Positions 2 to 31,250 of a DNA stretch of 32,000 nt are shown one piece after another. The stretch lies in assembly GCA_964480775.1 (NCBI GenBank), contig CAYZRF010000017.1, positions 7,305-39,304 of the forward strand, in the 5' to 3' direction. A model generated the notes under the pieces. It ran no database searches, was not told the DNA's origin, and was given only the letters and a program-made list of their open reading frames with translations. The stretch's first letter is position 1. Every line of letters starts with the position of its first letter. The position numbers and the translations under genes were made by a program. This DNA comes from an uncultured Nitrososphaerota archaeon. Lineage in GTDB: Archaea; Korarchaeota; Korarchaeia; Korarchaeales; Korarchaeaceae.

Positions 2-244
2 AACACCATAAATTTTGTCAAATCAAGAAGAAGATATGTCGCTGAGCTTTCAAGAGTACTTAAACCAAAAGGATATCTGTTTATTGAAACTTTATCAGAG
101 AAGAGCAAAGAATACGGAATACCAAGGGAAGAACTTGACTGGCTGATAACTCCTTTCTTTGAAATTTTAGAAATAGAGGAGTTTAACGCCCCTTGGGGAG
201 GACATAACCTTCTACATTATAGAATCTTAGCTCAGAACAGATGA
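2..244 (+). CDS. C-terminal fragment of a probable class I SAM-dependent methyltransferase (5' end outside the window)
   Basis: Frame 2 is open from the window edge to TGA at 242-244. It is absent from the ORF track because there is no start in the window. Translation: ...RRYVAELSRVLKPKGYLFIETLSEKSKEYGIPREELDWLITPFFEILEIEEFNAPWGGHNLLHYRILAQNR. The VLKPxGxL segment resembles the distal part of Rossmann-fold methyltransferases. The call rests on this short fragment only. Confidence 0.45.
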   Translation, partial: NTINFVKSRRRYVAELSRVLKPKGYLFIETLSEKSKEYGIPREELDWLITPFFEILEIEEFNAPWGGHNLLHYRILAQNR

Positions 245-448: not shown

Positions 449-1681
449 ATGGACTTTAGTTTCTCTGAGGAGGAGGAGCTTTTCAGAAGTAGCGTTAGAG
501 AGTTCTGCGAGAAGTATATAGCCCCAAAATGGATAGAAATTGATGAAGCCAGGGAAGGAACCCCTGTAGATCTAATTAAAACAATGGGACAGCAAGGACT
601 CTTTTGTATCCCGGTAAGCGAAGAATATGGAGGAATGGGTGGAACGCTCACTATGGCAGCCATAGCTGTAGATGAAATGGCCTACTACGATCCCTCAATA
701 GCTATCCCAGTTTATACCCTTCTTGTCAACGGATGGCCCATGTTACTTGACCTTTATGGAAGTGAAGAAGCCAAATCAGAGATTTTACCAAAAGTAGCTG
801 CTGGAGAAGCTTTCTTTGGAATTGCAACAACTGAACCCCAAGGAGGTTCAGATATCGCTGGTACAAGGGTAACTGCTAGAAAAGAAAATGGAAAATGGAT
901 TTTTAATGGAGAAAAAGCCTATATCAGCGGGGTGAAGGAGACATTAGAACTTCCTTGGGGAGGAGGCTTTTTCTTGATCGCAAGAACTGGTCCAAAAGAA
1001 GCTGGACACAGAGTTCTCACAACTTTTGCGTTCTTGGTCAAGAAAGACGGAGAAATAGTCAAAGGATTTGAACCGACCTATTATGAAGATATTGGAAGAG
1101 CGGGCATCTCCTGCGGAGGCTTTATGCTCAACGACGTTGAAGTAGACGACAAGTATAGGCTTGGAGATGAGAACAAGGGATTTTACGTAAATATGGAAGG
1201 CTTTAACGTAGCAAGGATACTTGTAGCAGCAGCAGCCATAGGTTCTGCTAGATGGGCCCTTGATCAGGCCAAAGAATGGTTTAGAGTGAGAAAACTCTTT
1301 GGTAGGTATATTTCCAGCTTCCAAGGAGTCAACTTCAAGTTCGCAGAGCTTTATGCAAAGCTGGAAGCGGCTAGGCTCATAGTTTACAAGGCCGCTTGGC
1401 TCGCTGACCAGATATACATTTACAAGAACCCGGCTTACAGTCCCAGAGACCTTAACGTTCCCGTTGCTATGGCAAAGATGATGGGACCAGAGGCTGCTGC
1501 GGACATATATGAGGAGGTCATGAAGTGGCACGGAGCATACGGCTACACAAGGGAGTGCCCAATCTTCAGAGGTTGGTTAGGAACTTTCTCCTACGTGATA
1601 GGAGCAGAAGGAGCTCAAAACATCATGAGATACATAATAGCCCGTGATACAATAGGTGCAGAATACGTTAGACCAGGCTAG
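449..1681 (+). CDS. Acyl-CoA dehydrogenase (ACAD family flavoprotein)
   Basis: 410-aa ORF with typical ACAD layout. The N-terminal helical region is FSEEEELFRSSVREFCEKYIAP. The middle domain carries FGIATTEPQGGSDIAG. The C-terminal helical domain ends in GAEGAQNIMRYIIARD, which holds the expected catalytic Glu position. It sits in a beta-oxidation and ETF gene context. Confidence 0.9.
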   Translation: MDFSFSEEEELFRSSVREFCEKYIAPKWIEIDEAREGTPVDLIKTMGQQGLFCIPVSEEYGGMGGTLTMAAIAVDEMAYYDPSIAIPVYTLLVNGWPMLLDLYGSEEAKSEILPKVAAGEAFFGIATTEPQGGSDIAGTRVTARKENGKWIFNGEKAYISGVKETLELPWGGGFFLIARTGPKEAGHRVLTTFAFLVKKDGEIVKGFEPTYYEDIGRAGISCGGFMLNDVEVDDKYRLGDENKGFYVNMEGFNVARILVAAAAIGSARWALDQAKEWFRVRKLFGRYISSFQGVNFKFAELYAKLEAARLIVYKAAWLADQIYIYKNPAYSPRDLNVPVAMAKMMGPEAAADIYEEVMKWHGAYGYTRECPIFRGWLGTFSYVIGAEGAQNIMRYIIARDTIGAEYVRPG

Positions 1682-1947: not shown

Positions 1948-2916
1948 TCATCCTTCTTTCTCAGAGACCTCTTTCAGCGCCTTCATCAGTTCTGGAATAA
2001 CTTCATAGAGATCTCCTACAATGCCGTAATCTGCGGACTTGAAGATCGGGGCCTCTGGATCTTTGTTTATCGCTACTATTACCTTTGAGTCCTTTATGCC
2101 TGCAACGTGTTGTATTGCTCCGGAAACCCCTACTCCTATGTAAAGCTTTGGTTTTATTGCTACTCCTGAGAGGCCAATCCATTCTGTGTACCATCCCAGG
2201 TCAGCTGCAATTGGTCTTGTGCATCCTACACATCCTCCAAGCATTTCAGCCAGTTGCTCCAGCATCCGAAAGTCCTCTTTCTTCTTTATACCTCTTCCTC
2301 CAAGCACAACGACCTCTGCTTCCTCTACCCTAACAGCTTTGATTTCTTTCGGTTTGAATTCAATGAGTTTTAGGCTTGGCTCTGGCAACTCCAAGCCGAG
2401 TTCGACAATTTCCCCTTTACCTCCAGAGGGGGCCTTTTCATACCTCCCTGGCTTCAGCAAAACTACCGCTGGTGTGCTCTTACATCTCTCTGTAGCGACC
2501 GCCATTCCAGCGTAAGCTGCACGTTTCGCTACGACGCTCCCATCGTCACCAATGTCAACTTCCGTGCATTCCGACATACAGCCTGCATTGAGCCTAGCTG
2601 CTAACCTTCCAGCCAGCTCCTTGCCTCTCTTAGTTGCGCCAATTAGCAGCACCTTTGGTTTTTCCTGCTTGGCAATGGTCTCGATGGCAGCAGCATAGGA
2701 CACAGGATCGAATCTCTCTAAGGAAGCATGATCTATAAGATAGACTTTATTTGGTCCGTGTTCAGACAGCTCTTCAGCCATATCCTTTACTCCATGTCCC
2801 AAGATGACTGAAGCTAAAGGAACATTCAGCTTCTCTGATAATCCTTTTCCAGCCGTTAAGAGCTCGAGACTAACGTTTTTATTCTCTGAATAAACCCAAA
2901 CCTCGTTTTCAGCCAC
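1948..2916 (-). CDS. etfA: Electron transfer flavoprotein, alpha subunit
   Basis: 322-aa ORF whose C-terminal FAD-binding signature region is [53 protein letters not shown]. It overlaps the etfB stop by 8 nt (2909-2916). Confidence 0.92.
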
Positions 2917-3706
2917 CTAGAACTCCCTCCCTAATCAAAGCTTCAACGAGCTTTTTCACCGCTTCGCTTGCTGGCATTTCCTCAAATATGACTCCCTTTC
3001 TCTTTATCTCGGGAGCTTTAGCATCTAAAATTTGCACTGCTGAGCCATTTTGGCCAAGTAATTCGCTGGGTATACCGAGTTCAGATGCATTCAGCATTTT
3101 CATGGGCTTTTTAGAGGCTCTCATTATTGCCGGTAGGGGTGGAATTCTTGGATCGTTTATCTCTCTCGTTACTGTGAGTAGGGCAGGCAATTTGACCTCC
3201 ACAACCTCATATCCGTCCTCTAGGTCTCTTTCGACTACTATTGAATCGTCTTTGACCTCTATGATTCTCTTTACGTAAGCTACTTGGGGAATTCCTAGCA
3301 ATCCAGCTAACCTAGGGCCTACTAAAGAGGAGTAACCATCACTCGTAGCTTCTCCGCATATTATCAGGTCGAATCCTTCCAGCTTTTCAATGGCCGTTTT
3401 TAGAACGAGGGACGTTACAAGAGTATCTATGTCATTGAACAAGGGATCGACGAGCAAATAAGCTTCGTCTGCACCCATTGCAAGAGCTTCTCTGAGTCCC
3501 ATCTTTGCGCTTTCTGGACCAACTGTTAAGACCGTTACATGCCCACCGTGCTTTTCCTTGAGTCTAATAGCTTCTTCTATTGCCCTTTTATCGACATCGC
3601 TGAGTTTCATCTTTGCTCCGGCCAATATTGGCTCTCCAGTTGACGAATCAAACCTAAGCTCGCTCACATCAACAGCATACTTAGCACAGGTGATTACTCT
3701 CAACAC
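2909..3706 (-). CDS. etfB: Electron transfer flavoprotein, beta subunit
   Basis: 265-aa ORF with typical EtfB sequence: VITCAKYAVDV..., GADEAYLL, LIICGEATSDGYSSLVGPRLAGLLGIPQVAYV, ALLTVTREINDPRIPPLPAIMRASKKP. The start is GTG at 3706, with a GGAG about 9 nt upstream. Confidence 0.92.
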   Translation of the reverse strand: MLRVITCAKYAVDVSELRFDSSTGEPILAGAKMKLSDVDKRAIEEAIRLKEKHGGHVTVLTVGPESAKMGLREALAMGADEAYLLVDPLFNDIDTLVTSLVLKTAIEKLEGFDLIICGEATSDGYSSLVGPRLAGLLGIPQVAYVKRIIEVKDDSIVVERDLEDGYEVVEVKLPALLTVTREINDPRIPPLPAIMRASKKPMKMLNASELGIPSELLGQNGSAVQILDAKAPEIKRKGVIFEEMPASEAVKKLVEALIREGVLGG

Positions 3707-4034
3707 ACTCTTGATCTCCGATTGTTTAGTTATAAGTAATTATGTCGGCAGGTTCGACTGGGCCAGATGGAGAGATTTCTATTATTAAAATAGTGAGATT
3801 ATTGGAAGTGACAGGTAATTAAGATGTTCTCAGATTTCTGGCTAACTTGTTGGTTACCATGGTTCCAGTAGCTTCGGCCCCAAGATCGGAATTTTCATCG
3901 TTTTCAAATTGTAATTTCACTATGTGGTGCAGCTGTAGATTTCTGTACCCCTTTCTTATAGCTATAAGAATAAGCTAACAAATTAATAATCTAAGAAAAG
4001 AGAATTTTATCCAAAAATTTCTAATTTCTCATAG

Positions 4035-5345
4035 TTAGGATTCAGGGACTCCCATCTTTTCTTTTAGATAAATCAAAGTGCTTGTGGCAGCGGCTCTGGC
4101 ATGAGAAATGCTACTCATAATATCCATTGGACCGGTGCAGCATCCTGACAGAAATACACCATCGATTTGTGTCTCATTAACTGATCGTAGAGGATCTAAA
4201 ACCTTAAAGAAAGTATCTCCATTTATTTGAACGCCCAGCTGGTTTCCAACATTCCTAGCATGGCTTGAACCAGTTACTCCAGGAATCAAGATGACGAGGT
4301 CGACATTTAACTCCTCTAACTTCCATGTTCCTGCGTCAAAGATCCTTAAGGTTAACTTTCCCTCTTTATCTCTTATCTCAGAAGGAATTCCGTGGAGCAT
4401 AACGATGCCACTGTCTCTAGCGGTCTGATAAAATTCCTCGTGCATTCTTCCAGAAGCTCTTATGTCGTTGTAACAGACGTATACCTCTACCTCTTCCCTA
4501 TATAACTGCTTTATCTCGTATGCTTGTTTTAGTGCTGTCATGCATCCTATCCTGCAGCAGTGCTTTAGAAATCGTCTGTCTCTTGAACCAGCACATAAGA
4601 CAAAGGCAACTGATTTGGGTCTCTTCCCATCAGATGGTCTTACCACCTCTCCTTTAGTTGGCCCTCCTGGATCTAGCATCCTTTCTAATTCCAAGCTCGT
4701 AATTATGTTCTTATATCGGCCATATCCCAGCTCCTTTACCCTTGAAATGTCAAATAACTCCATCCCAGTGGCTAAAATCAAAGCCTTAACTTGGATTTTT
4801 GTTTCTTCTGGTCTTTCATCTAAGTTTATTGCATCATTTGGGCAGGCCTCGACGCAAGCATAACATTCCTCTCCTTTGAAATGAAGACATGCTCTTTCAT
4901 CTATTGCAAATCCCTCCGGAAAGGGCCTCACAGAAGGATAATCTATAGCCTTCCTTTTTCCTATACCGAGTTCATATTCTCTATTGTACTCGACTGGGCA
5001 TACTTCAGAACACTTCCCGCATGAGATGCACTTGTTTATGTCCACATGCCTAGGCTTCTTAATGATTTGAAGTTCAAAACCCTCTTCAGTCTTCTTTATA
5101 GCTTTAATTTCAACATTTGTCATTATCTGAATATTCTCTAAGTTTCTTAGCTCCTTGAACATCCCATCTAGTATGCTTGATGTTGGATCAAGCGTCGGGA
5201 ACACTTTGCTTAAAAGCGAAACATTTCCTCCTAAGCTGAAGTTTCTCTCAAGCAGGTAAACTCTCACACCTTGTTTTGAGAGGCATAGGGAAGACTCAAT
5301 GCCAGCTACTCCTCCTCCCACAACTGCTACCGGTCCTATAACCAT
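4035..5345 (-). CDS. hdrA: HdrA-like FAD/FeS oxidoreductase (short form of heterodisulfide reductase subunit A family)
   Basis: 436-aa ORF that starts directly with the dinucleotide-binding motif VAVVGGGVAGIE. An inserted ferredoxin domain carries CISCGKCSEVCP and CX7CYACVEACP. An HdrA-type CAGSRD...HCCRIGCMTALKQA segment follows. It lacks the N- and C-terminal extensions of the roughly 650-aa methanogen HdrA. Confidence 0.8.
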   Translation of the reverse strand: MVIGPVAVVGGGVAGIESSLCLSKQGVRVYLLERNFSLGGNVSLLSKVFPTLDPTSSILDGMFKELRNLENIQIMTNVEIKAIKKTEEGFELQIIKKPRHVDINKCISCGKCSEVCPVEYNREYELGIGKRKAIDYPSVRPFPEGFAIDERACLHFKGEECYACVEACPNDAINLDERPEETKIQVKALILATGMELFDISRVKELGYGRYKNIITSLELERMLDPGGPTKGEVVRPSDGKRPKSVAFVLCAGSRDRRFLKHCCRIGCMTALKQAYEIKQLYREEVEVYVCYNDIRASGRMHEEFYQTARDSGIVMLHGIPSEIRDKEGKLTLRIFDAGTWKLEELNVDLVILIPGVTGSSHARNVGNQLGVQINGDTFFKVLDPLRSVNETQIDGVFLSGCCTGPMDIMSSISHARAAATSTLIYLKEKMGVPES

Positions 5346-5449
5346 ATCTATCGGCCTCTACTCATTGTGTATTATTGCTTGGTTACTCATCACTGACACT
5401 GGATCTTTTTATGGTTAATCCTTAATCTTTTGAGGGCAGGAGGGGACAG

Positions 5450-5983
5450 ATGGCAAGCGGTATGTCTAGCAGCCTATTGGATCTGATGACTCTAAAAAGA
5501 GCAGACTGGAGTATTCTGAAGGAAATAGCTAAGAAAATTGGAGAACAAAACCCAAAGAGTTGCTTTGAATGTACGAAATGCACCAGCGGTTGTCCAGCAG
5601 CAGAATTCTTGGAGATGTATCCCCACAACATAGTGTGTGCCGTCAGGGAAGGACTAGCAGAGGAGATTATCAACTCTGATGTGATCTGGAGGTGTGCTCT
5701 CTGTCTTAAATGCAAGGAAAGGTGTCCTCAAGAAGTAGCGCCTTCGGATCTCATAATAGCTCTAAGAAATATCGCCACGGACCGGGGAGTTGGCGTTCCC
5801 GAAGACCTAAACTCCGTTCTCAACTCGATCATGGAAATTGGATACATTCATCCCCCTATGAAGGCCTTCTCGAGAAGGCTAAGGAAAACTTACACGCGGG
5901 AAGATCTTGGCCTGAAAGTTCTGAAGGGACCTAAGGATATGGATGCTTTCAGGGAGGCTCTGATGGCTGCCTTCGAAGAGTAA
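5450..5983 (+). CDS. hdrC: HdrC-like 2x[4Fe-4S] ferredoxin subunit
   Basis: 177-aa ORF with two CX2CX2CX3CP motifs (CFECTKCTSGCP, CALCLKCKERCP). A strong Shine-Dalgarno sequence, GGAGGGG, lies upstream of the ATG at 5450. Its stop overlaps the hdrB-like start (TAATG at 5981-5985). Confidence 0.78.
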   Translation: MASGMSSSLLDLMTLKRADWSILKEIAKKIGEQNPKSCFECTKCTSGCPAAEFLEMYPHNIVCAVREGLAEEIINSDVIWRCALCLKCKERCPQEVAPSDLIIALRNIATDRGVGVPEDLNSVLNSIMEIGYIHPPMKAFSRRLRKTYTREDLGLKVLKGPKDMDAFREALMAAFEE

Positions 5984-6879
5984 TGGGAGGGTTTCGATTG
6001 GGAAGCGATGGTCCGAGATATGCTCTCTATCTGGGATGTATGATAGCGAATGAGGAGTATGCATATGAGATGTCCACTAGAGAAATCATGAGGGAGCTTG
6101 GCGTTGAATTAGTAGATCTAGAAGGAGAAAGCTGTTGTGGTAGTCCAATCCGCAGCTTGAACACAAGATTATGGCTATACCTTGCAGCCAGAAACCTTTC
6201 TCTTGCCGAAAGAACGGGATTAGATGTTCTTTGTCTCTGTAGTGGGTGCTTCGAATCCCTGCTCGAAGCAAAAAATTTCCTAGAGAACAGCGAAAGTCTA
6301 AAGAAGTGGGTTAACGAGGCGTTATCTCTTGAAGGGCTTGAGTATACAGGCAGGTGTAAGGTGAAGCATCTTGTCCAGGTTTTGCATGACGACTTGGGCG
6401 TTGAAAGACTGAGAGAGCACGTAAAAAATGAGCTTAAAGGTCTAAAATTAGCATCTCATCCAGGGTGTCATCTGCTTAGGCCAAGCAAGGTGCTTAGAGC
6501 AGATGATCCAGAGGATCCGAGGAAACTGGATGAACTTATCGAAGCAAGCGGCGCTGAGGCTATCGACTATCCAGAAAAACTAGATTGTTGCGGAGCAGGA
6601 CTGCTTCTAATGAAACCAGAGGGGACTATGAGCTTTGCTGGGACTAAACTAAAGGCTTTGGCAGCCAGAGAAGTGGATGGTTTGGTAACGGTGTGTCCTG
6701 CTTGTCATGTCGTGTTCGATAAAAGACAGGGGGCCATAAGCAGACAGGTGGGCGTCGATAAGAGGATTCCAATAATTTACTACCCACAGCTACTGGGACT
6801 GGCCTTTGGTATAGAGTCTGAGAGGTTGGGAATCCATCTGAATAGCAGCCCTGTGGAGGAAATCCTATCCAAGATATAG
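5983..6879 (+). CDS. hdrB: HdrB-like subunit with two CCG (cysteine-rich) domains
   Basis: 298-aa ORF with two complete CCG-domain patterns. The first is GC...CCGSP...CLCSGC. The second is GCHLL...CCGAG...VCPACH. It is translationally coupled to the hdrC-like gene. Confidence 0.82.
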   Translation: MGGFRLGSDGPRYALYLGCMIANEEYAYEMSTREIMRELGVELVDLEGESCCGSPIRSLNTRLWLYLAARNLSLAERTGLDVLCLCSGCFESLLEAKNFLENSESLKKWVNEALSLEGLEYTGRCKVKHLVQVLHDDLGVERLREHVKNELKGLKLASHPGCHLLRPSKVLRADDPEDPRKLDELIEASGAEAIDYPEKLDCCGAGLLLMKPEGTMSFAGTKLKALAAREVDGLVTVCPACHVVFDKRQGAISRQVGVDKRIPIIYYPQLLGLAFGIESERLGIHLNSSPVEEILSKI

Positions 6880-6881
6880 AT

Positions 6882-7670
6882 TCATTTCCCCTTGAACTCA
6901 GGCTTTCTCTTTGAAAGAAAAGCCTGTAGTCCCTCTTTTGCATCTTCGGTTGAAAAAACAGCGCTAAAAGCGTGCTTCTCTAGTTCTAACCCTACATCAA
7001 TGGGAACCTGAGAACCGAAGATCAAGACTCGTTTTATAAGACTTTGAGCTATTGTAGGTCCTTCAGCGATTCTTTCTGCTAGAGACATGACCTCCTCTCT
7101 AAGCTTCTCCTGAGGAACAACTTTGTGGACAAGTCCCATGTCCAAGGCTTCTGAAGCAGAGATTCTATCTCCAAACATCAAAAATTCCATTGCTCTGGAC
7201 AAACCTATGATCCTAGCCAGCCTTTGAGTGGCTCCCCATCCAGGAATAATCCCCAATTTAACTTCGGGGTTTCCTAGTTGAGCATTTTCGACCGATATTC
7301 TGAAATCACAGGCCAAGGTGAGTTCAAATCCACCACCTAGAGCATAGCCGTTTATAGCTGCTATTACAGGAACACGAAGACTTTCAATTTTCTTCATCAA
7401 TCTCTGCCCTATCTCGGATAGCTCCAGAGCCCCCTGAGAATCTAGCTTAGATAACAATCCTAAGTCAGCACCAGCGCAAAAGGCCTTTTCTCCCTCGCCG
7501 GTTATTACAACACATTTTACTTCCTTATCTTCTTCTACCTTGTCCATGACATCTGAGAGCTCCTTTAACATCTTCATGTTGAAGACGTTCAGCTTATCTG
7601 GTCTGTTAAGATAAACCCAGAGAACCCCCTTCTCCTTCTCCACCCTTAACGTCTCATAATTAGTATACAT
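6882..7670 (-). CDS. Enoyl-CoA hydratase (crotonase family)
   Basis: Crotonase hallmarks are present: VVITGEGEKAFCAGADLG, AAINGYALGGGFELTLACDFR, GIIPGWGATQRL. The ORF track extends to 7715. I prefer the ATG at 7668-7670 (MYTNYETLRVEKEKGVLWVYLNRP), which matches crotonase N-termini and overlaps the upstream gene by only 11 nt. Confidence 0.88.
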   Translation of the reverse strand: MYTNYETLRVEKEKGVLWVYLNRPDKLNVFNMKMLKELSDVMDKVEEDKEVKCVVITGEGEKAFCAGADLGLLSKLDSQGALELSEIGQRLMKKIESLRVPVIAAINGYALGGGFELTLACDFRISVENAQLGNPEVKLGIIPGWGATQRLARIIGLSRAMEFLMFGDRISASEALDMGLVHKVVPQEKLREEVMSLAERIAEGPTIAQSLIKRVLIFGSQVPIDVGLELEKHAFSAVFSTEDAKEGLQAFLSKRKPEFKGK

Positions 7671-8844
7671 AGAACCCTCTCCCTGCCTCTCTACCCACCC
7701 AACCTCTCTTAACATAATCCTTTAAAATAGGGCATGGCTTGTAAATATCCTCTCCTCTCTCTGAGAACAGAGCTTCAAGCTTACTAACAACTTCCTCGAT
7801 TCCTAACTCATCTGCCAGTTCTAAGGGCCCTTTGGGCCAACCAGCCCCCAGTTTCATCGCTGTATCCACGTCTTTCGTTTCAGCCACCTCATCCATAACT
7901 ATCCAAGCGGCCTCATTCACTGCAACTGAAAGAAATTCTAAGGCATCATACTCTTTTGCCAGCTCTTTTGGTATGTTTGGTCTTCCTGCACTCCAATCAT
8001 AGAAACCTCTGCCTGTTTTCCTTCCTAAATTGCCTTGGGCAATCAGCTCATCTATGATAGGGCAGTACTTGAGCCTGTCTCCGTAAGCATCAGATAGGAT
8101 TCTCATTATCTCTGCCAGTACATCTAGCCCTATGTAATCGGCTAGCTCAAACAGACCCATTGGGAGTCTAGCACTATATTTAGCTGCAGCATCAATCTCC
8201 TCTTTCTTTGCTCTTCCTAGGTGAACGTCCCAAAACACCTTGTTAAACAATGCACCAAGTATCCTGTTCACGATGAAACCTCTGAAATCCTTCTTTACAA
8301 GCACCGGCGTCTTTCCTAAAGCTTTTGCAAGCTCCATTACTCTTCTAAGCGTTTCTTCACTTGTATAATCCCCTTTTATCACTTCAACTAAAGCCATAAT
8401 CTGAGGAGGGTTGAAAAAGTGCATTCCAGCGACTTTATCAGGTCTTCTGGTAATTTTTGAAATCTCGGTTATGCTAAGGCTTGATGTATTTGAGGTAAGG
8501 ATAGCCTCCCTTGGAGTTACCTGATCAAGTTTTTGAAATACCAATGTTTTGAGTTTCATTTTCTCTGGAACCGCCTCTATCGCTAGATCTACATCGGTTA
8601 GATCTTCATAGCTCGTTGTCGGCTTTATTCTGGAAAAAGAAGCCTCAGCTTCTTCTTTACCTATTTTACCTTTCTCCATGAGCTTATTAATGCTCCATTT
8701 TATTCTTTCCATGGCCTTATCAAGTATTTCATCGCTTATGTCGACGATGTATACTTTTAGTCCAGCCATGGCACAAAGCTGGGCAATACCATGACCCATA
8801 ACTCCAGCTCCCACAACAGCTACGGTTTCCACCTTCTTACCCAT
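7660..8844 (-). CDS. 3-hydroxyacyl-CoA dehydrogenase (NAD-binding; extended C-terminal domain)
   Basis: 394-aa ORF with the Rossmann motif VAVVGAGVMGHGIAQ, then the SNTSSL and HFFNPP motifs typical of the 3HCDH family. A second C-terminal 3HCDH_C-like repeat follows (WPKGPLELADELG). Confidence 0.9.
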   Translation of the reverse strand: MGKKVETVAVVGAGVMGHGIAQLCAMAGLKVYIVDISDEILDKAMERIKWSINKLMEKGKIGKEEAEASFSRIKPTTSYEDLTDVDLAIEAVPEKMKLKTLVFQKLDQVTPREAILTSNTSSLSITEISKITRRPDKVAGMHFFNPPQIMALVEVIKGDYTSEETLRRVMELAKALGKTPVLVKKDFRGFIVNRILGALFNKVFWDVHLGRAKKEEIDAAAKYSARLPMGLFELADYIGLDVLAEIMRILSDAYGDRLKYCPIIDELIAQGNLGRKTGRGFYDWSAGRPNIPKELAKEYDALEFLSVAVNEAAWIVMDEVAETKDVDTAMKLGAGWPKGPLELADELGIEEVVSKLEALFSERGEDIYKPCPILKDYVKRGWVGREAGRGFYVY

Positions 8845-9273
8845 TCAACCACCCTGTTCTTCCCAAGGCACAAACCTATAGGTCAAAGAACCATGTTCTT
8901 CTTTTGCTAAAAGCCTAACTTTCATGCCAATTGAGACGTGCTCTCCTTCGTACCAAGCTAAAACTTTGACACCTTCTTTCATTCTCGCAACAACTACTGT
9001 ATAAGGAGCTTCACCTGAAAAGCTAGCTGGTGCCGCCATTATCCTAGTATAAGTTTCGACTATGCCTTCACCGCTTAATTCAACCCACTCTACATCAGAA
9101 CTTAAGCAGGAAGGACATGTAGTTGAAGGGGGAAACCTTAACGTTTGACAGTTCTTACATCTTGTGGCTAAGACCTTTCCTTCCTTTAGACCGTTCCAAA
9201 ACTTTTCAATTCTCGATATAGGGATCCTGTACACCAAGCTCAAGGTTTTTGACGTTATAAATGGCTCGCTCAC
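8845..9273 (-). CDS. DUF35 family OB-fold/zinc-ribbon protein (thiolase-associated)
   Basis: 142-aa ORF with the zinc-ribbon CKNCQTLRFPPSTTCPSC followed by an OB-like region. It lies directly between the thiolase and hydroxyacyl-CoA dehydrogenase genes, with 6-nt and 0-nt gaps. Confidence 0.85.
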   Translation of the reverse strand: MSEPFITSKTLSLVYRIPISRIEKFWNGLKEGKVLATRCKNCQTLRFPPSTTCPSCLSSDVEWVELSGEGIVETYTRIMAAPASFSGEAPYTVVVARMKEGVKVLAWYEGEHVSIGMKVRLLAKEEHGSLTYRFVPWEEQGG

Positions 9274-9279
9274 TCTACT

Positions 9280-10443
9280 TCACCTTCCCAACACAGTCAC
9301 AAAACAATACTGCCCAGTTCCTCCAACATTATGAGCCAGGGCTATGTATTTATTCAAGGGAACCTGCCTACTAGGTTCCACTTCTTCCCTCAACTGTTTT
9401 GTGAGTTCAACTATCATTGAAATTCCAGTAGCTCCCAAAGGATGTCCTTTTGCCTTCAGTCCTCCATCGATGTTCACAGGGATTCTACCACCAATTTCGG
9501 TTTCTCCCTCTCTTATCAATTTCGCGCCTTCGCCCTTTTTGCAAAACCCCAAATCCTCATAAGCAAGGATTTCTGCTATGGTAAAGCAGTCATGAACTTC
9601 CGCTACCTCTATCTCTTTAGCTTCTACTTTCGCCATCCTGTAAGCCATTTGAGCTGCTTCCATACTAGATTGAAGCCCAATGAAATTAGTTCTGTTTACC
9701 ATTGTTGAAGTATCCGAAGATACTCCTATACCTTTTATCCAAACAGGGGTATCTACTCCTATCTCTTTTACCTTGTCCTTTGATGCTAAAACCACCGCCG
9801 CAGCCCCATCGCTTATCGGACAACAGTCATAAAGCTTAAGCGGCCAAGCGATCATTCTAGAAGAAAGTACATCCTCGACTGTTATCTCTTTTTGGAACTG
9901 AGCAAGGGGGTTCCTAGCACCATACTTGTGGTTTTTGACAGCAACAAGTGCTAGATCTTCTTCAGTAGTTCCATACTTTTTCATGTGGGCCGTGGCATAG
10001 AGGGCATAGTAAGCAGGGAAGGTAACCCCAAACTCATGAAATTCCCAGAAGTAGGATCCTGCTCTTCCTAAGATCTCTATCATGGTAGGAGTTTCTACCT
10101 CTGTCATCTTTTCTACTCCAAGGGCTACTGCTACATCAAACATTCCTGATGAGACAGCAAACCAAGCTGCATAGAAAGCGGCGCTTCCACTTGCACATGC
10201 CGCTTCGCACCTCATGGTTGCAATTCCTTGTAGTCCTGACTGTTCAGCCACTAGTACTGCAGGAGTGATGTCCTCGGAACTCAGCCCAAAGTTTCCCACG
10301 GAAAGAAATTTTATCTCTTTTTTATTCACGCCAGCGTTCTTAATAGCACTCTTCAGAGCATCTACGGATAGTTCGGAGAGGCTAGCATCTCTCCTTTTTC
10401 CAAACTTAGTTTGTCCAACCCCAATTACAGCTACTTCCTTCAT
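9280..10443 (-). CDS. Thiolase (acetyl-CoA C-acyltransferase, archaeal/SCP-x-like type)
   Basis: 387-aa ORF with the active-site Cys region RCEAACASGSAAF and C-terminal GHPLGATG and NVGGTGQ motifs. A Shine-Dalgarno sequence, AGGGGGGAA, lies upstream of the ATG. Confidence 0.9.
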   Translation of the reverse strand: MKEVAVIGVGQTKFGKRRDASLSELSVDALKSAIKNAGVNKKEIKFLSVGNFGLSSEDITPAVLVAEQSGLQGIATMRCEAACASGSAAFYAAWFAVSSGMFDVAVALGVEKMTEVETPTMIEILGRAGSYFWEFHEFGVTFPAYYALYATAHMKKYGTTEEDLALVAVKNHKYGARNPLAQFQKEITVEDVLSSRMIAWPLKLYDCCPISDGAAAVVLASKDKVKEIGVDTPVWIKGIGVSSDTSTMVNRTNFIGLQSSMEAAQMAYRMAKVEAKEIEVAEVHDCFTIAEILAYEDLGFCKKGEGAKLIREGETEIGGRIPVNIDGGLKAKGHPLGATGISMIVELTKQLREEVEPSRQVPLNKYIALAHNVGGTGQYCFVTVLGR

Positions 10444-15394: not shown

Positions 15395-15700
15395 ATGGAA
15401 AAGCTTAAGTCCTTAGATCCGGAATTAAAGCGATTTTTAGTAAATCTGGGGCAAGAACAGAGGTCCTCACTAAAATGGGACTTGCTCGGCTATCTTCTTA
15501 CCTTAAAAGCCAAGGCATGTGCTGGAGCTCCAATTGAACAAGTGAAACTCATGTTGTTATATTGGAAATATGATCTTTTGGAGTCTGATGAAGGCCTAGG
15601 AACTCTAATCGAAATATGCAAGGCATTAGATTCAGGAAAAACGGCAGAAATCTTAGCCAAAAATGGTCTAAATGAGCTTGCAGAACGTATTAAGGGGTAA
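15395..15700 (+). CDS. Hypothetical small helical protein, probably co-transcribed with mer
   Basis: 101-aa ORF with ATG preceded by AAAGGG. Its amino-acid composition matches the neighbouring genes. It ends 13 nt before the mer ATG, and the mer Shine-Dalgarno sequence lies in that spacer. I recognise no family. Confidence 0.45.
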   Translation: MEKLKSLDPELKRFLVNLGQEQRSSLKWDLLGYLLTLKAKACAGAPIEQVKLMLLYWKYDLLESDEGLGTLIEICKALDSGKTAEILAKNGLNELAERIKG

Positions 15701-15713
15701 AGGGGTGGAGACT

Positions 15714-16712
15714 ATGGTCAAGTTTGGTGTCGAGTTTATTCCGCAGGAACCGTTCTGGAGAACAGTCTTTTATGTAGCTCAGGCCGAAAAGGGCGGATTT
15801 GATAACACATGGATAACTGATCATTTCATGAACAGGAATCCGTATACAACAATGGCAGCCATAGCGCTTTACACAGAGAAGATAACGATGGGAGTGGGTG
15901 TTACAAATCCTTACTTAGTTAACCCTGTAGTAACAGCTCAAAACATAGCTTCTCTAAGCGAGATGGCTCCAAACAGGGTAATACTTGGAATTGGAGCTGG
16001 AGATAAAACCACTCTTGGTTTCCTTGGTGTTGAGACAAGTCTGCCAGTGAGAGCAGTAAGAGAATGCGTAGAAATTTCAAGAACCCTGCTTTCAGGGGAA
16101 AAAGTCAAGAATTACGAAGGCAAGATCTTCAAGATACAAAAGGCTAAGCTGGCTTTCAAACCTGCTGGAAAAATACCGATATACGTTGGTGCTCAAGGGC
16201 CAATGATGCTTAAGTTAGCAGCCAAGATAGGAGACGGCGTTCTAATTAACGCTTCACACCCTGACGACGTTAAGGAAGCCATGGTCCATCTAAAGAAAGG
16301 AGCAGAGAAGGCGGGAAGAGACCTTAGCAATTTTGATGTGGTTGTTTACACATCATTTTCAACCCATAAAGACAGAGAAAAAGCCAGAAAAGCCGCTCTC
16401 CCCGTGGTTGCCTTCATAGTAGCGGGATGTCCTCCACCCATATTAGAAAAACACGGAATATCTCTGGAGAAAGCAACGAAGCTCAAGAATGCCCTTAATG
16501 AGGGAAAATGGGATGAAGCGTTCTCAAGCGTGACAAATGAAATGATGGAGGCCTTCTCGATCTGTGGAACTCCAGAAGAATGCTCAGAGAAGATAGCGGA
16601 GATGTTCAAACTTGGAGTAACCCAATTCGTCATGGGTTCACCGATAGGTCCGAAGGTTCACAAAGCCATTGATACCATAAGCAAGGAGATCATACCAAGA
16701 TTCAAAGAATAA
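15714..16712 (+). CDS. mer: F420-dependent 5,10-methylenetetrahydromethanopterin reductase
   Basis: Collinear with Mer: KFGVEFIP, WITDHF, GVGVTNPY, GIGAGDK, YVGAQGPMMLKLAAKIGDGVLINASHP, VVAFIVAGCPPPILEKHGI, EAFSICGTPEEC, GVTQFVMGSPIGP, EIIPRFKE. I prefer the ATG at 15714, preceded by AGGGGTGGAG, over the ORF-track start at 15672. Confidence 0.93.
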   Translation: MVKFGVEFIPQEPFWRTVFYVAQAEKGGFDNTWITDHFMNRNPYTTMAAIALYTEKITMGVGVTNPYLVNPVVTAQNIASLSEMAPNRVILGIGAGDKTTLGFLGVETSLPVRAVRECVEISRTLLSGEKVKNYEGKIFKIQKAKLAFKPAGKIPIYVGAQGPMMLKLAAKIGDGVLINASHPDDVKEAMVHLKKGAEKAGRDLSNFDVVVYTSFSTHKDREKARKAALPVVAFIVAGCPPPILEKHGISLEKATKLKNALNEGKWDEAFSSVTNEMMEAFSICGTPEECSEKIAEMFKLGVTQFVMGSPIGPKVHKAIDTISKEIIPRFKE

Positions 16713-16832: not shown

Positions 16833-17813
16833 TCACAAGGGGAGTTCTTTCCCTAACCTCTTCTTTTTCATAGAAACAAACTTGAGCACGAATGATCTGG
16901 AATCCTCGCTTAGTTTCTTTACCTCTAAAAGATTGGAAGAGATTGCTCTATCTACAAGATCTTTAGCTTCTTGACTCCTTGCAAAAATCGTCGACCATCC
17001 TTCTTCAGACCCTATACTTCCTACTGACAGATCCGCAGATTCAGCTGCAAAGTCTCCGCAGAAAGAACAAGATCTTCTAGCATATTCTTTCGTTTCCTTA
17101 ATTCGAATACCGTGGACTTCTCCATTACTAAGTTTAACTGAGAACTTCCCGTGCTTTATTTCAGATCTAATGACAGATGAAGGATCCACACCCATTTTAC
17201 TCTTTAACATCTCACAGAACTTTGTGTAAGGATAGCTCTCCGTGCAAAATAGTCCGATAACTAATTTAATGTGTTTCGCGTATCGTGGTGCCCTCTTTCT
17301 CATGAATTGAATTGCTCTTACTTGGCAAGGAACTCCTACAACTGCTATCGACTGATGCTTGTCAACGATATCCCTTAGGGAGGAAAGACTTGGGCACGAA
17401 ACGTACTTTGATCCAGCCGATGCAATTAAATCCTGCTCAGTTAGAGCTACGAAGGGTTTAGGTCTCAAAGGTTCTTTGTCGCTGAGCTGACATACGGTCG
17501 CAGCCTCAATAATACCATCCCTTAGGGCTTGAATGAGTAAAGTAGTAACAACTCCGCCATCCTGAGCAAATTTAGCTACACCATCTAAGAGAGTTCTTCC
17601 TGTATATGATGCTAAAACGGGGGTCTCTTCGACTCCTCGATTGATTACAGGACACACAAAAGTACAGAGCTTACACTCAATGCACTTCTCTAAATCAAAG
17701 ATGGGCTCGTCGCCGTCTATAGTGACTGCCTCTTTAGGACATACAGCTATACATGCACCACAAAAGGCGCACAATCCAGACTCTATGATCCTACCGACTG
17801 ATTTGAGTTCCAT
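16833..17813 (-). CDS. FrhB/FdhB/FpoF-family F420-binding FeS flavoprotein with an N-terminal 2x[4Fe-4S] ferredoxin domain
   Basis: 326-aa ORF with N-terminal CAFCGACIAVCP and CIECKLCTFVCP. The FrhB_N-like motif AQDGGVVTTLL follows. The C-terminal FrhB_C-like motif is CSFCGDFAAESADLSVGSIG. Confidence 0.8.
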   Translation of the reverse strand: MELKSVGRIIESGLCAFCGACIAVCPKEAVTIDGDEPIFDLEKCIECKLCTFVCPVINRGVEETPVLASYTGRTLLDGVAKFAQDGGVVTTLLIQALRDGIIEAATVCQLSDKEPLRPKPFVALTEQDLIASAGSKYVSCPSLSSLRDIVDKHQSIAVVGVPCQVRAIQFMRKRAPRYAKHIKLVIGLFCTESYPYTKFCEMLKSKMGVDPSSVIRSEIKHGKFSVKLSNGEVHGIRIKETKEYARRSCSFCGDFAAESADLSVGSIGSEEGWSTIFARSQEAKDLVDRAISSNLLEVKKLSEDSRSFVLKFVSMKKKRLGKELPL

Positions 17814-29144: not shown

Positions 29145-30170
29145 ATGACACACAGAAAAGAAAGTTGGATGGAAGGTGACTTCATAGAGAACTTAGACGG
29201 AGTAATCTTCAATGTCAAAGGTAATCTTCATCCAAAAAACTCCGTTGTAGCTTTTGTTAGGTATGTACCTGATTCGAAAGGTGATAGAAGAAGAGATTCT
29301 ATTATTTACAGAAAGCTTCACTCTCTAAATGAGAAGATCCAGTTTCTTAGAGCAAATTATCCTCAATATTTAGTGAAGGATCCAGTATTTGACGAAAAAG
29401 TCTGTGAAGTTCCTAACAATGAAATACTAAGGTTCTATGATCCAAAAAGGAAAGCTCAAGAGATTCTTCTTTTGGAGGAGACAGATTTCTTAAAACTAAA
29501 AATCAAGAGGTTTATAAGGCTTATCTCATGCCTCTCAAACGTTCCATCCTCTTCCTTTGGGGTTTCTGGGTCTGTATTGGTAGACCTTCACAAAGCCAGC
29601 TCAGACATGGATCCATTAGTCTATGGATCTGAAAACTGCTACAAAGTATATGAAACACTTGTAGAGCTGCATAAATGCTCAAAAACAGTTAGAAGTCTAA
29701 ATAAGAGAGAGATTGAGAGATTATACAAGGATAAAATTAAAGACACTCTCTTTGAGTTTGAAGCTTTCGCCAGATCAATGAAAGGTAGGGTGATGGAGGG
29801 CATCTTTGAGGGCACGCTATACTCAATAAGATTTCTAAAGGATCCAAGAGAAATCAAAGAAGAGTATAGCAAAATATCGTTCAAAAACCTAGGAGAGGTA
29901 GAAATAGAGGGAAGGGTAATTGACGCAAAAGAGGCTATCTTCACTCCGTGTCGCTACACACTAGATGATGTCAGGATTATTAGTGGAAGTTCTCCTGAGG
30001 ATATTAGAGAAGTGTGCTCCTTCCGATCTAGATTTTGCGATATAGCCAAGGAGAGGGATGTGATAAGAGCAAGAGGTAAATTGGAGAGGGTCATAACAAG
30101 AGAGGATGAATATCTAAGGGTTTTGGTGGGAGGAAAGCGCTCTCACTTTATGGTGAGATTAATTACGTAA
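29145..30170 (+). CDS. Uncharacterised Pol-beta-superfamily nucleotidyltransferase-like protein with a C-terminal beta-barrel (OB-like) region, paralog A
   Basis: 341-aa ORF with the nucleotidyltransferase core FGVSGSVLVDLHKASSDMDPLVYG (G-S ... D-x-D). It aligns over its full length with the convergent neighbour: N-terminal NVKGNLHP...FVRYVP and C-terminal EDIREV...RARGKLERV...YLRVLVG. ATG at 29169 is an alternative start. Confidence 0.72.
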   Translation: MTHRKESWMEGDFIENLDGVIFNVKGNLHPKNSVVAFVRYVPDSKGDRRRDSIIYRKLHSLNEKIQFLRANYPQYLVKDPVFDEKVCEVPNNEILRFYDPKRKAQEILLLEETDFLKLKIKRFIRLISCLSNVPSSSFGVSGSVLVDLHKASSDMDPLVYGSENCYKVYETLVELHKCSKTVRSLNKREIERLYKDKIKDTLFEFEAFARSMKGRVMEGIFEGTLYSIRFLKDPREIKEEYSKISFKNLGEVEIEGRVIDAKEAIFTPCRYTLDDVRIISGSSPEDIREVCSFRSRFCDIAKERDVIRARGKLERVITREDEYLRVLVGGKRSHFMVRLIT

Positions 30171-31250
30171 CCAGCTCTTTGGCAGAATAAAGTCCCTTCC
30201 TTTAGCTTCAAAAGATCCGACTAACACTCTAAGGTATGTTGAACCATCCTCAACGTTCTTCACAGACTCAAGCTTTCCTCTGACAACTATCTCCTCTCCT
30301 TCTTCAGCTATTCCAGAAAAGAGACCTTCGTAACTGACAACTTCCCTTATCTCAGGACGAGACTTATTATCAATTGTCTTAGCCTCTCTTATTGAATACT
30401 TTGAGGGCATGAAAAAAGAGTCCCTACAGTCTTCCACGAAACAGCTAATTGTGATCATGCCAAGCGATTGGTATTTCTTTTGACCGTACCTTTCCTCCAC
30501 CTCTGCTTCTGTCTTAACAGGATGGATGGAAAATTGTCTCCCTCTAAAAAGTCCCCTATCCCTCTTTTTTCTACAAAGCTTAGCTGCTATCTTCGGTTCC
30601 AGAAAGTATATCTTAGCTACATCCTTAATACGGCGTTCTAGAAGCTCTCCACTTAGCGGTTCAAGCCCATCATAGCTCTCATATAGTTGTGGTAGCTGCT
30701 CCAAGAGCTTTACAGAATTCTCTCTGCTGTACACAATTAGATCTATATCAGAGAACCTAGGGTTATGTATGCCCAAAAGTAAGGAGCCAGTAAGTCCGAA
30801 GTTCTCTATAGCTATTTTACATTCTCTTGAAAGGATTGAGATGAGTTCAACTACCTCTTCCTCTAACGGATCCCGGTTCTCCTTAGAAAAAATCTGTTTT
30901 ACCCTTTCTTCTGGAAGGAAGTGGACTTTTATGTCTTCTATAGGCACGGCCGTTATCAAAATATTCATAAAGGGATCCTCATAGAGGTACTCTGGTTTCT
31001 TCTCACTCAAGTACTCCTGTGTCGAGAGAACTCCAACGGTACTATAATATGGCAATATCCTGTTATACCCTATGTTGCCCTTTTTCCACTTAGTACTCTC
31101 ACTTATTCTCTCTGGTATATACTTTAGATATGAAATAACCCTGCTGGGTGGATGAACATTTCCAATGACACAAAAGAACATTCCTTCTTTGTCCATGAGA
31201 TAATCTCTGTCTCTGAAGCAAGTCTTAGCTCTTGTTTGATCCTGAGCCAT
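30159..31250 (-). CDS. Uncharacterised Pol-beta-superfamily nucleotidyltransferase-like protein with a C-terminal beta-barrel (OB-like) region, paralog B
   Basis: 363-aa ORF with the core FGLTGSLLLGIHNPRFSDIDLIVYS (G-S ... D-x-D). It shares blocks with paralog A: CVIGNVHP...YLKYIP and PEIREV...VVRGKLESV...YLRVLVG. The two 3' ends overlap by 12 nt. Confidence 0.72.
   Translation of the reverse strand: MAQDQTRAKTCFRDRDYLMDKEGMFFCVIGNVHPPSRVISYLKYIPERISESTKWKKGNIGYNRILPYYSTVGVLSTQEYLSEKKPEYLYEDPFMNILITAVPIEDIKVHFLPEERVKQIFSKENRDPLEEEVVELISILSRECKIAIENFGLTGSLLLGIHNPRFSDIDLIVYSRENSVKLLEQLPQLYESYDGLEPLSGELLERRIKDVAKIYFLEPKIAAKLCRKKRDRGLFRGRQFSIHPVKTEAEVEERYGQKKYQSLGMITISCFVEDCRDSFFMPSKYSIREAKTIDNKSRPEIREVVSYEGLFSGIAEEGEEIVVRGKLESVKNVEDGSTYLRVLVGSFEAKGRDFILPKSWLRN

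Follow-up and report, generated by a model that had tools for sequence, protein, structure and literature searches.

Truncated hdrA and hdrCB genes beside electron transfer flavoprotein and acyl-CoA dehydrogenase genes in an archaeal beta-oxidation locus: a candidate soluble link

How might an archaeon that oxidises acyl-CoA dispose of the electrons collected by its electron transfer flavoprotein (ETF)? In thermodynamic terms, the anaerobic oxidation of fatty acids and alkanes is limited by the re-oxidation of ETF at ~0 mV, and bacteria solve this either with the membrane protein EtfD/EMO and reverse electron transport or by confurcation of the Bcd/Etf type. For beta-oxidising archaea, the accounts given in metagenome papers are mostly guesswork. 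The question is raised by a stretch of 32,000 nucleotides from an uncultured archaeon (contig CAYZRF010000017.1 of assembly GCA_964480775.1, positions 7,305 to 39,304 of the forward strand; hereafter the window), in which the genes of an acyl-CoA dehydrogenase (ACAD) and of the ETF subunits EtfB and EtfA stand beside a trio of heterodisulfide reductase (Hdr)-like genes, a truncated hdrA and a divergent hdrC-hdrB pair. The clade to which this truncated HdrA belongs shows a recurrent association with ACAD and EtfAB in TACK archaea; an Hdr-type Fe-S/flavin module that serves ETF is, as a kind, already known. We consider it likely that the functional coupling of EtfAB/ACAD with the soluble Hdr-like trio is real. 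The locus is organised as follows.

449 to 1681, forward strand: ACAD, 410 amino acids; all four Acyl-CoA_dh domains of Pfam.
1948 to 2916, reverse strand: EtfA, the large ETF subunit, 322 amino acids, GTG start; Pfam ETF and ETF_alpha.
2909 to 3706, reverse strand: EtfB, the small ETF subunit, 265 amino acids, GTG start; Pfam ETF.
3827 to 3915, reverse strand: relic of a type III sulfide:quinone reductase (SQR)-like gene, its decayed 5' end, found by blastn.
4035 to 5345, reverse strand: truncated HdrA, 436 amino acids, with a FAD/thioredoxin-reductase-like core and an inserted ferredoxin domain, matched to PDB entries of HdrA with phmmer.
5346 to 5449, no strand: divergent hdrA/hdrCB intergenic region of 104 bp, read from the sequence.
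5450 to 5983, forward strand: HdrC-like protein, 177 amino acids, with two CX2CX2CX3CP motifs.
5983 to 6879, forward strand: HdrB-like protein, 298 amino acids, with two CCG domains.

The order described in the first-pass annotation, in which ACAD is followed by etfB-etfA, hdrA, the divergent hdrC-hdrB pair and then genes for enoyl-CoA hydratase (ECH), 3-hydroxyacyl-CoA dehydrogenase (HADH), a DUF35 protein and thiolase, is borne out by the open reading frame (ORF) list and Pfam, as is the coupling of hdrC to hdrB through a TAATG overlap by the sequence. The etfB and etfA genes overlap by 8 nt. A shared promoter is presumed to lie in the 104-bp spacer, and the divergent hdrA/hdrCB arrangement is kept in relatives down to 41-48% HdrA identity.

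The evidence for the link comes from the gene neighbourhoods of the truncated-HdrA clade, which were compared in six independent lineages; one further locus, L094, breaks off 845 bp upstream of hdrC and gives no information. The lineages are given below with the HdrA identity to the window in brackets, the arrowheads marking gene direction.

Window clade (74-100%; L001-L007, L138-L140): full synteny, with SQR-III-like, DUF1641 and AsnC regulator genes between hdrA and etfB.
Bathyarchaeota Kmv02 (41%; L012): EtfB-EtfA> <ACAD <HdrB <HdrC HdrA>.
Methanomethylicia GCA_038859835.1 (37%; L143): <EtfA <EtfB ... <ACAD ... HdrC> HdrB> HdrA>.
'CCQVGC' group (L141, L142, L144): HdrA alone, convergent with ACAD.
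P0007 (43%; L010, L011): trio, then thiolase; the contig ends inside the thiolase gene.
P0006 (48%; L008, L009): trio with unrelated neighbours; no etf, acd or acyl-CoA gene within 10 kb.

ACAD lies beside the truncated HdrA in four of the six lineages, and ACAD, EtfBA and HdrCB occur together in three, with a different gene order in each; a fifth lineage (L010) has thiolase instead of ACAD. The control consisted of 59 loci with other HdrA homologues and at least 6 kb of flank, taken from the matches listed in scans of genome and metagenome contigs. Those scans, in which the matches listed were mostly generic HdrA loci with no close relatives of the window among them, also yielded L012. Within the control only one of the 59 loci has an ACAD within 10 kb, so that, relative to the matches listed, ACAD is enriched beside the truncated HdrA (4/6 against 1/59; one-sided Fisher p = 1e-4), as is the combination of ACAD and Etf (3/6 against 1/59; p = 0.0018). 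On this comparison, chance juxtaposition of etf/acd and the Hdr trio was rejected. Since each of the three has its own gene order, selection on the linkage is a better explanation than inherited synteny. Co-occurrence of the trio with etf and acd across archaeal genomes, the test proposed in the first-pass annotation, holds in part: it is supported by the four lineages with ACAD and the three with all modules, and P0006 stands against it.

A further comparison concerns how far the components have diverged. The window ACAD is 69% identical to that of L143 (4391-5617) and 45% identical to that of L012. Between the window and L143, HdrA, HdrB, HdrC, EtfA and EtfB share 37-51% identity, far below the 69% of ACAD, which suggests unusually strong constraint on ACAD or its lateral exchange.

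Several observations on individual loci may be recorded here. Identical copies of the window HdrC were located only on contigs of 1.5-3.3 kb, and an exact-match search with the window HdrA gave no contig. In the 74% relative (L007, 4384-9876), the divergent hdrC/hdrA pair is split by a 5.6-kb insertion carrying a phage-integrase-like gene and several ORFs with no Pfam match. The 43%-identical trio of L010/L011 (ERZ650341 NODE_4614; JGI 3300014886) comes from the same two metagenomes as the window's 90% relative, and its coverage is similar (11x against 15x); the two trios may be paralogues within one organism.

What kind of HdrA is it that keeps this company? The window protein matches methanogen HdrA with E = 8.5e-98 (phmmer, PDB), aligned only to residues ~147-565 of 650. 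The parts kept are therefore the thioredoxin-reductase-like FAD core, the core [4Fe-4S] site and the inserted 2x[4Fe-4S] ferredoxin domain, whose eight cysteines (C106/109/112/116 and C153/161/164/168) lie within amino acids 106-168; the N-terminal cluster domain and the C-terminal ferredoxin domain are missing (436 amino acids against ~650). The best NCBIfam model is HdrA2 (423 bits, cut-off 1100), and a search of family representatives gave mainly multi-HdrA fusion proteins. When 123 HdrA homologues are aligned, the core cluster motif of the window protein reads C251-x11-C263-C264-x3-C268 ('HCCRIGC') in place of the canonical C-x12-C-x3-CC. The lysine at flavin N5 is retained (K273, equivalent to K409 of M. 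wolfeii) and is invariant across the alignment. The CxxC pair beside the FAD (C194/C197 of M. wolfeii, C59/C62 of BamE) is absent, its positions being occupied by P54 and S57. It is missing in all 16 truncated 'CC..GC' HdrAs, while both cysteines are kept in 5/5 full-length 'CC..GC' forms and in 86 of the 102 other HdrAs. In BamE, a subunit of class II benzoyl-CoA reductase, this pair has been placed on the bifurcation path (bioRxiv 10.64898/2026.04.10.717634). A neighbour-joining tree of a reduced sequence set (core alignment columns, 60 bootstraps) recovers the truncated 'CC..GC' HdrAs as monophyletic in 53/60 replicates, beside the full-length 'CC..GC' forms. The phylogenetic placement proposed for the HdrA-like protein thus gives a truncated clade of its own, with sHdrA branching elsewhere. 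Canonical bifurcation in the manner of HdrABC cannot be taken for granted: the flavin-N5 lysine and core cluster are in place, and the input domains and the CxxC pair are gone.

The other two members of the trio are close to their methanogen counterparts. The HdrC-like protein matches HdrC (9sfi_E) with E = 4e-16, and its two CX2CX2CX3CP motifs lie at C38 and C82. The HdrB-like protein aligns end to end with 5odc_B (E = 1.2e-66) and has two complete CX(n)CCGX(n)CX2C motifs; all ten cluster cysteines align with those of M. wolfeii HdrB, with C89 and C241 corresponding to C81 and C234. In the M. wolfeii protein, Cys81 and Cys234 are the bridging cysteines that carry the disulfide-cleaving chemistry (PMC13083937). 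Since the bridging cysteines are kept, unlike the situation in EtfD, where ligands are replaced, and in BamD, where the site is blocked, the HdrB site looks catalytic rather than a mere relay. HdrC scores 80 bits against TIGR03290 (cut-off 160) and HdrB 279 bits against TIGR03288 (cut-off 345); all three Hdr-like proteins are below the NCBIfam equivalog cut-offs. None of the three has a hydrophobic 19-mer at a Kyte-Doolittle value of at least 1.6. The motif checks and the hydropathy scan agree with what the first-pass annotation had said of these proteins, namely that HdrB has both full CCG patterns, that HdrC has both cysteine motifs and that a membrane helix is absent from the trio.

The ETF itself gives a mixed picture. 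The best PDB matches are CarE for EtfA (6fah, 2.9e-64; also 7koe, 5ol2, 7qh2 and 4kpu) and CarD for EtfB (6fah, 5.9e-51), and the top five matches of either subunit are bifurcating Etfs, with E-values of 1e-40 to 1e-64, whereas non-bifurcating ones give 1e-18 to 1e-44. The weakest EtfB match among the PDB hits is 5ow0, which we take to be a Geobacter metallireducens ETF. Such matches would suit an ACAD-EtfAB complex of the Bcd/Etf type, bifurcating or confurcating between NADH and ferredoxin, with which the Hdr trio shares only the ferredoxin pool; a bifurcating EtfAB-Acadm complex has been proposed in related archaea, the Culexarchaeia (PMC9723716). Bifurcating Etfs of group 2 are marked by RXGV and GXXSPTXV in the small subunit and by RPXFGG, with an essential Arg, in the large subunit (PMC10734219). 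In the window, EtfB fails both small-subunit motifs, with 'LAGA' for RXGV and 'GQNGSAVQI' for GXXSPTXV, and EtfA has 'RAAYAG' where group 2 has RPXFGG, so that the Arg alone is kept. The FAD/AMP loop is altered as well ('GEATSDGYSSLVG' against 'GRQAIDGDTAQVG'). Apart from the Arg, 'RAAYAG' resembles the non-bifurcating 'RxIYAG', the comparison being with the human sequence. With two of the three motifs absent, the third reduced to its Arg and the loop different, a Bcd/Etf-type complex is very unlikely here; inspection of EtfB for the features of a bifurcating, second-FAD ETF, as proposed in the first-pass annotation, shows an overall likeness to bifurcating Etfs without their small-subunit motifs. 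The Etfs of the window, L012 and L143 share 48-55% mutual identity and the same deviations from the group-2 motifs; judged by sequence, the Etfs linked to truncated HdrA are a subfamily of their own.

Comparison with known systems helps to define what the trio could be. Like methanogen HdrABC (5ODC, 9SFI, 8RVU, 7BKB), it has full-length HdrB and HdrC homologues with all cluster cysteines, and an HdrA with FAD core, core [4Fe-4S] cluster, inserted 2x[4Fe-4S] domain and flavin-N5 lysine. It differs in that its HdrA has lost the terminal domains and the CxxC pair and has one cluster cysteine shifted (C-x11-CC-x3-C), and in its setting among etf, acd and beta-oxidation genes. No MvhAGD, FdhAB, MvhD or FrhB partner adjoins the trio; the sole FrhB-like gene of the window is 10 kb away, in the CO dehydrogenase/acetyl-CoA synthase (CODH/ACS) region. 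QmoABC was rejected as a model, there being a single HdrA and no membrane subunit QmoC.

In bacteria, acd-etfAB clusters include the gene of a membrane FeS oxidoreductase (DUF224/EMO/EtfD), and EtfD/EMO, the ETF:(methyl)menaquinone oxidoreductase of mycobacteria and syntrophs, resembles the window proteins in having a unit of HdrC plus HdrB type (Fer4 and two CCG domains) encoded beside etfAB and acd. EtfD is, in contrast, a single membrane protein with a cytochrome-b-like domain and shielded, non-catalytic clusters in which Thr and His replace catalytic ligands, whereas the HdrC and HdrB of the window are split and soluble, keep the catalytic cysteines and are tied to a flavoprotein rather than to a quinone site.

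The closest functional precedent is provided by class II benzoyl-CoA reductase. In Geobacter metallireducens, the HdrA-type BamE and the HdrBC-like BamD of BamDEF reduce ETF, according to electron cryo-tomography and in vitro assays (bioRxiv 10.64898/2026.04.10.717634). As in the window, there is a soluble HdrA-type flavoprotein with an HdrBC-like subunit; in the Bam system this pair exchanges electrons with ETF, which couples in turn to an acyl-CoA dehydrogenase. By analogy, a mid-potential donor could reduce the HdrA flavin, one electron passing through HdrC and HdrB to ETF, ACAD and enoyl-CoA and the other to ferredoxin; ETF would then dock at the non-cubane clusters of HdrB, which would handle no disulfide. 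BamD does bind ETF by its non-cubane clusters and reduce it, the electrons reaching crotonyl-CoA through butyryl-CoA dehydrogenase in vitro; the conserved K273 fits this scheme, and so does the linkage of ACAD and Etf to the trio. There are, however, marked differences. BamE is a fused double HdrA with the CxxC pair and input domains; in BamD, where the HdrB and HdrC parts are fused, the site is blocked and the distal cluster has degenerated. The Bam complex is bacterial, uses a different type of ETF (BamOP) and needs the tungsten module BamBC together with BamF and BamGHI; in Pfam scans of the window no domains of BamB/C, a fused BamE, BamF or BamGHI were found. The window trio has no mid-potential input, as it lacks an MvhD- or BamF-like subunit, the N- and C-terminal domains of HdrA and the CxxC pair, and its HdrB retains the bridging cysteines and both full clusters that BamD and EtfD have variously blocked or lost. 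We therefore regard electron flow of this benzoyl-CoA reductase kind as distinctly unlikely.

The sHdr system of sulfur oxidisers is similar in its truncated HdrA (sHdrA, 6TJR), which also lacks terminal domains and the CxxC pair and has the 'CC..GC' motif. However, sHdrA (~340 amino acids) has no inserted ferredoxin domain and occupies a separate branch of the tree, and 6TJR aligns only to residues 180-424. Its locus, hdrC1-B1-A-hyp-C2-B2, encodes two HdrBC pairs and GcvH-like LbpA carriers and has no linkage to etf or acd; the window, by contrast, has one hdrCB pair and, in Pfam scans, no GcvH gene. On the single HdrBC pair and the ferredoxin insert, sHdr was rejected. A classical sHdr locus was seen in an unclassified bacterial metagenome-assembled genome (L032, 8020-13908), with hdrC1-B1-A-C2-B2, two GcvH-like genes and, upstream, an ECH gene and an ArsR regulator; its sHdrA shares 'CC..GC' and the loss of CxxC with the archaeal truncated clade, apparently by convergence. 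FixABCX/EtfABCX, a bifurcating ETF with an ETF-QO-like flavoprotein and a ferredoxin, offers a different parallel, in which EtfAB and a ~430-residue flavoprotein with Fe-S clusters pass electrons to a terminal acceptor. Here, by contrast, the flavoprotein is HdrA-derived, the end site is that of a disulfide reductase rather than of quinone and the Etf lacks the group-2 motifs; with no FixC or FixX Pfam domains in the window, this system was rejected too.

The sequences establish the parts with their cofactor motifs, the recurrent linkage and the intact catalytic cysteines of HdrB. Beyond this we advance, tentatively and with slightly less than even weight, a specific model as the simplest one that employs every conserved partner: truncated HdrA, HdrC, HdrB, EtfBA and ACAD would form one soluble system linking acyl-CoA/enoyl-CoA to a thiol/disulfide couple. 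In the direction of beta-oxidation, ACAD would reduce ETF, which would dock on the truncated HdrA and deliver a high-potential electron to the exposed flavin region; with the terminal domains and the CxxC pair lost, the usual MvhD-type input route is gone and the flavin region is left free. Two Fe-S exits are retained, one leading from the core cluster to HdrC and HdrB and the other formed by the ferredoxin-like insert. A low-potential electron from reduced ferredoxin, which could be supplied by the oxidative Wood-Ljungdahl genes of the window, would enter through the inserted ferredoxin domain. The two would meet at the HdrA FAD, and the pair would travel from there over the core [4Fe-4S] cluster and HdrC to HdrB, where a disulfide would be reduced. 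The reverse mode is also conceivable, with oxidation of a dithiol driving the reduction of ferredoxin and enoyl-CoA. The relevant textbook potentials are ~-10 mV for enoyl-CoA/acyl-CoA, ~-450 to -500 mV for ferredoxin, -140 mV for CoM-S-S-CoB and -290 mV for lipoamide. Acyl-CoA alone is thus insufficient to reduce a disulfide at -140 to -290 mV, but together with ferredoxin the average is ~-250 mV, which makes the scheme feasible. In its strongest form, in which the truncated, CxxC-less HdrA clade and HdrCB would be a soluble ETF:ferredoxin-confurcating (hetero)disulfide reductase of quinone-poor anaerobic archaea, the proposal is possible but doubtful.

As to the disulfide, candidates are a CoM-S-S-CoB-like heterodisulfide, the disulfide of a lipoyl-GcvH-type protein and CoA disulfide. 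GcvH genes occur beside Hdr-like genes in L138, L105, L013 and L032, and this recurrence makes a lipoyl protein a candidate; the idea of a lipoyl-protein disulfide has also been raised for the Culexarchaeia (PMC9723716). In L138 (1735-6181), an EtfD/HdrDE-like protein lies next to a lipoate-protein ligase and a genuine GcvH.

A number of observations weigh against the proposed coupling and have to be set beside it. The first concerns the acceptor of the ETF electrons. Across the 32 kb of the window, Pfam scans and tblastn found no EtfD/DUF224, FixCX, second Hdr, second Etf or second ACAD. In the relative with 90% HdrA identity (GCA_003661365.1, L138), ACAD is preceded by a methyltransferase, a CDC48-like ATPase and then a 683-residue protein with NarI, Fer4 and CCG domains. 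This EtfD-like protein, ~3.8 kb upstream of ACAD and four genes away, has N-terminal hydrophobic helices and its best PDB match is mycobacterial EtfD (9OJN, 9e-37); it is plausible as a conventional ETF:quinone oxidoreductase able to take the ETF electrons. The remnant at the left edge of the window matches the methyltransferase upstream of ACAD in the relatives at 94% identity (tblastn), so that synteny runs past the window edge, and a conventional EtfD-like acceptor probably coexists near the window genes. The earlier statement that no ETF:quinone oxidoreductase, FixCX or HdrD/DUF224-type gene is present is therefore true of the window and misses a gene just upstream in its nearest relatives. 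The distribution of this gene is uneven: it is absent at the equivalent position in the 81% relative and within 8-10 kb of the trio in L143, L012 has a CCG fragment only, and within the window tblastn with the relatives' protein gives a weak match inside hdrC only.

It follows that the two modules could be independent, the ETF being re-oxidised by a membrane EtfD/EMO encoded outside the window and the trio acting as a ferredoxin-dependent, non-bifurcating disulfide reductase, for example one that keeps a thiol cofactor reduced, co-located or co-regulated with etf and acd. The upstream EtfD-like protein and the continuing synteny are in keeping with this, as are the truncated HdrA, without the canonical input parts for bifurcation, and the SQR-like enzyme of the relatives, which hints at a membrane quinone. 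The trio of L008/L009, with neither etf nor acd, points the same way and indicates that the link is not universal. Yet the EtfD-like gene is missing at the positions named above, among the cluster members listed none lies on the contig of the window, and independence leaves unexplained the enrichment beside ACAD and Etf in different gene orders. We judge independent modules, including the variant with a thiol cofactor, to be unlikely. Gene linkage may, all the same, reflect co-regulation rather than direct contact.

The adjacency of hdrA and etfB is a second point. The 328-bp spacer between them (3707-4034) contains the relic listed above, which is 81-86% identical (blastn) to the start of the relatives' Pyr_redox_2 gene, in the GxGxxG region, with its frame broken. 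Every relative with 74-90% HdrA identity has the SQR-like, DUF1641 and AsnC genes, the SQR-like flavoprotein and DUF1641 sitting between hdrA and etfB; the relic marks a deletion of ~2.4 kb that removed the three genes in the window lineage, or in this assembly. The direct adjacency on which the first-pass annotation drew thus exists and is secondary. The SQR-like flavoprotein could even be the real partner of HdrA in the relatives. As an obligatory partner, the SQR-like/DUF1641 pair was rejected, being absent from the window, L012 and L143. The AsnC-type regulator lost from the window, found between the SQR-like gene and etfB (L001, 13347-13931), has a Cys-rich C-terminal tail (CGLDCSGC...CLGCP) and could, from this tail, sense redox state or metals on behalf of the cluster.

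Two further points concern the mechanism. In the canonical wiring of HdrABC the high-potential branch is taken to run through the HdrBC arm, which makes the assignment of ports in the model speculative, and sHdrA, with the same 'CC..GC' motif and no CxxC pair, reportedly does not bifurcate. Taken with the results above, the soluble ETF-coupled Hdr-like complex suggested by the first-pass annotation is supported in its functional link by the linkage in the clade, the control and the bacterial precedent; its premise of a missing acceptor is doubtful, canonical bifurcation is not to be presumed and the Etf lacks the small-subunit motifs of group 2.

The remaining features of the window, apart from the core locus, are these.

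2 to 241, forward strand: 3' end (last 80 codons) of a TehB-like methyltransferase gene, clipped by the window edge.
6882 to 7715, reverse strand: ECH; Pfam ECH_1, 1.6e-72.
7660 to 8844, reverse strand: HADH; Pfam 3HCDH_N and 3HCDH.
8845 to 9273, reverse strand: DUF35/ChsH2-type OB-fold protein, a thiolase partner; Pfam zf-ChsH2 and OB_ChsH2_C.
9280 to 10443, reverse strand: thiolase of SCP-x type; Pfam Thiolase_N and Thiolase_C_1.
15672 to 16712, forward strand: luciferase-like (Mer-type) F420 enzyme.
16833 to 17813, reverse strand: FrhB-like protein with an N-terminal 2x[4Fe-4S] domain.
29145 to 30170, forward strand: ORF of 341 amino acids.
30159 to 31250, reverse strand: ORF of 363 amino acids.

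In its longest form the ECH ORF shares 56 nt with the end of the HADH gene, and in relatives the ECH start is called variously, giving a form of 277 or 262 amino acids; the true start is therefore probably a downstream ATG. The Mer-type enzyme and the FrhB-like protein lie between the beta-oxidation genes and the CODH/ACS cluster, and the FrhB-like protein could serve an Hdr, or ferredoxin, as a partner linked to F420. The 341- and 363-residue ORFs, between CooC and Mch, have no convincing Pfam match, the longer one giving a weak match to nucleotidyltransferases. Other genes of the window encode Mtd, Mch, the Mer-like F420 enzyme, the FrhB-like protein, RACo, CooC, CooT and a five-subunit CODH/ACS; together with the beta-oxidation genes, the Mtd, Mch, Mer-like and CODH/ACS genes indicate an archaeon with a tetrahydromethanopterin-dependent Wood-Ljungdahl pathway and beta-oxidation. 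Near-identical proteins (RLG... accessions) are labelled "Thermoproteota archaeon" and "Candidatus Korarchaeota archaeon" at NCBI and presumably come from metagenome-assembled genomes of hydrothermal sediment.

No description of an ETF/ACAD-Hdr linkage in archaea was found in the full-text literature, subscription journals being outside its coverage. This agrees with the first-pass annotation, to whose author no biochemical description of such a coupling in archaea was known; the 2026 preprint cited above shows a bacterial counterpart. In archaeal metagenome papers (PMC9723716 among them), EtfAB, ACAD and several Hdr complexes are reported together and no link between them is drawn. The linkage described here names a concrete set of five small proteins for expression and assay, and the truncated clade may help to show which parts of HdrA bifurcation needs. 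If the proposed coupling is correct, a soluble Hdr module working with ETF would add a third route for ETF re-oxidation and would extend the modular logic of benzoyl-CoA reductase to archaea, acyl-CoA being oxidised by funnelling the electrons of ETF and ferredoxin onto a thiol/disulfide carrier. In Mcr-bearing relatives, fatty-acid or alkane beta-oxidation would then be coupled directly to heterodisulfide reduction, and hence to methanogenesis.

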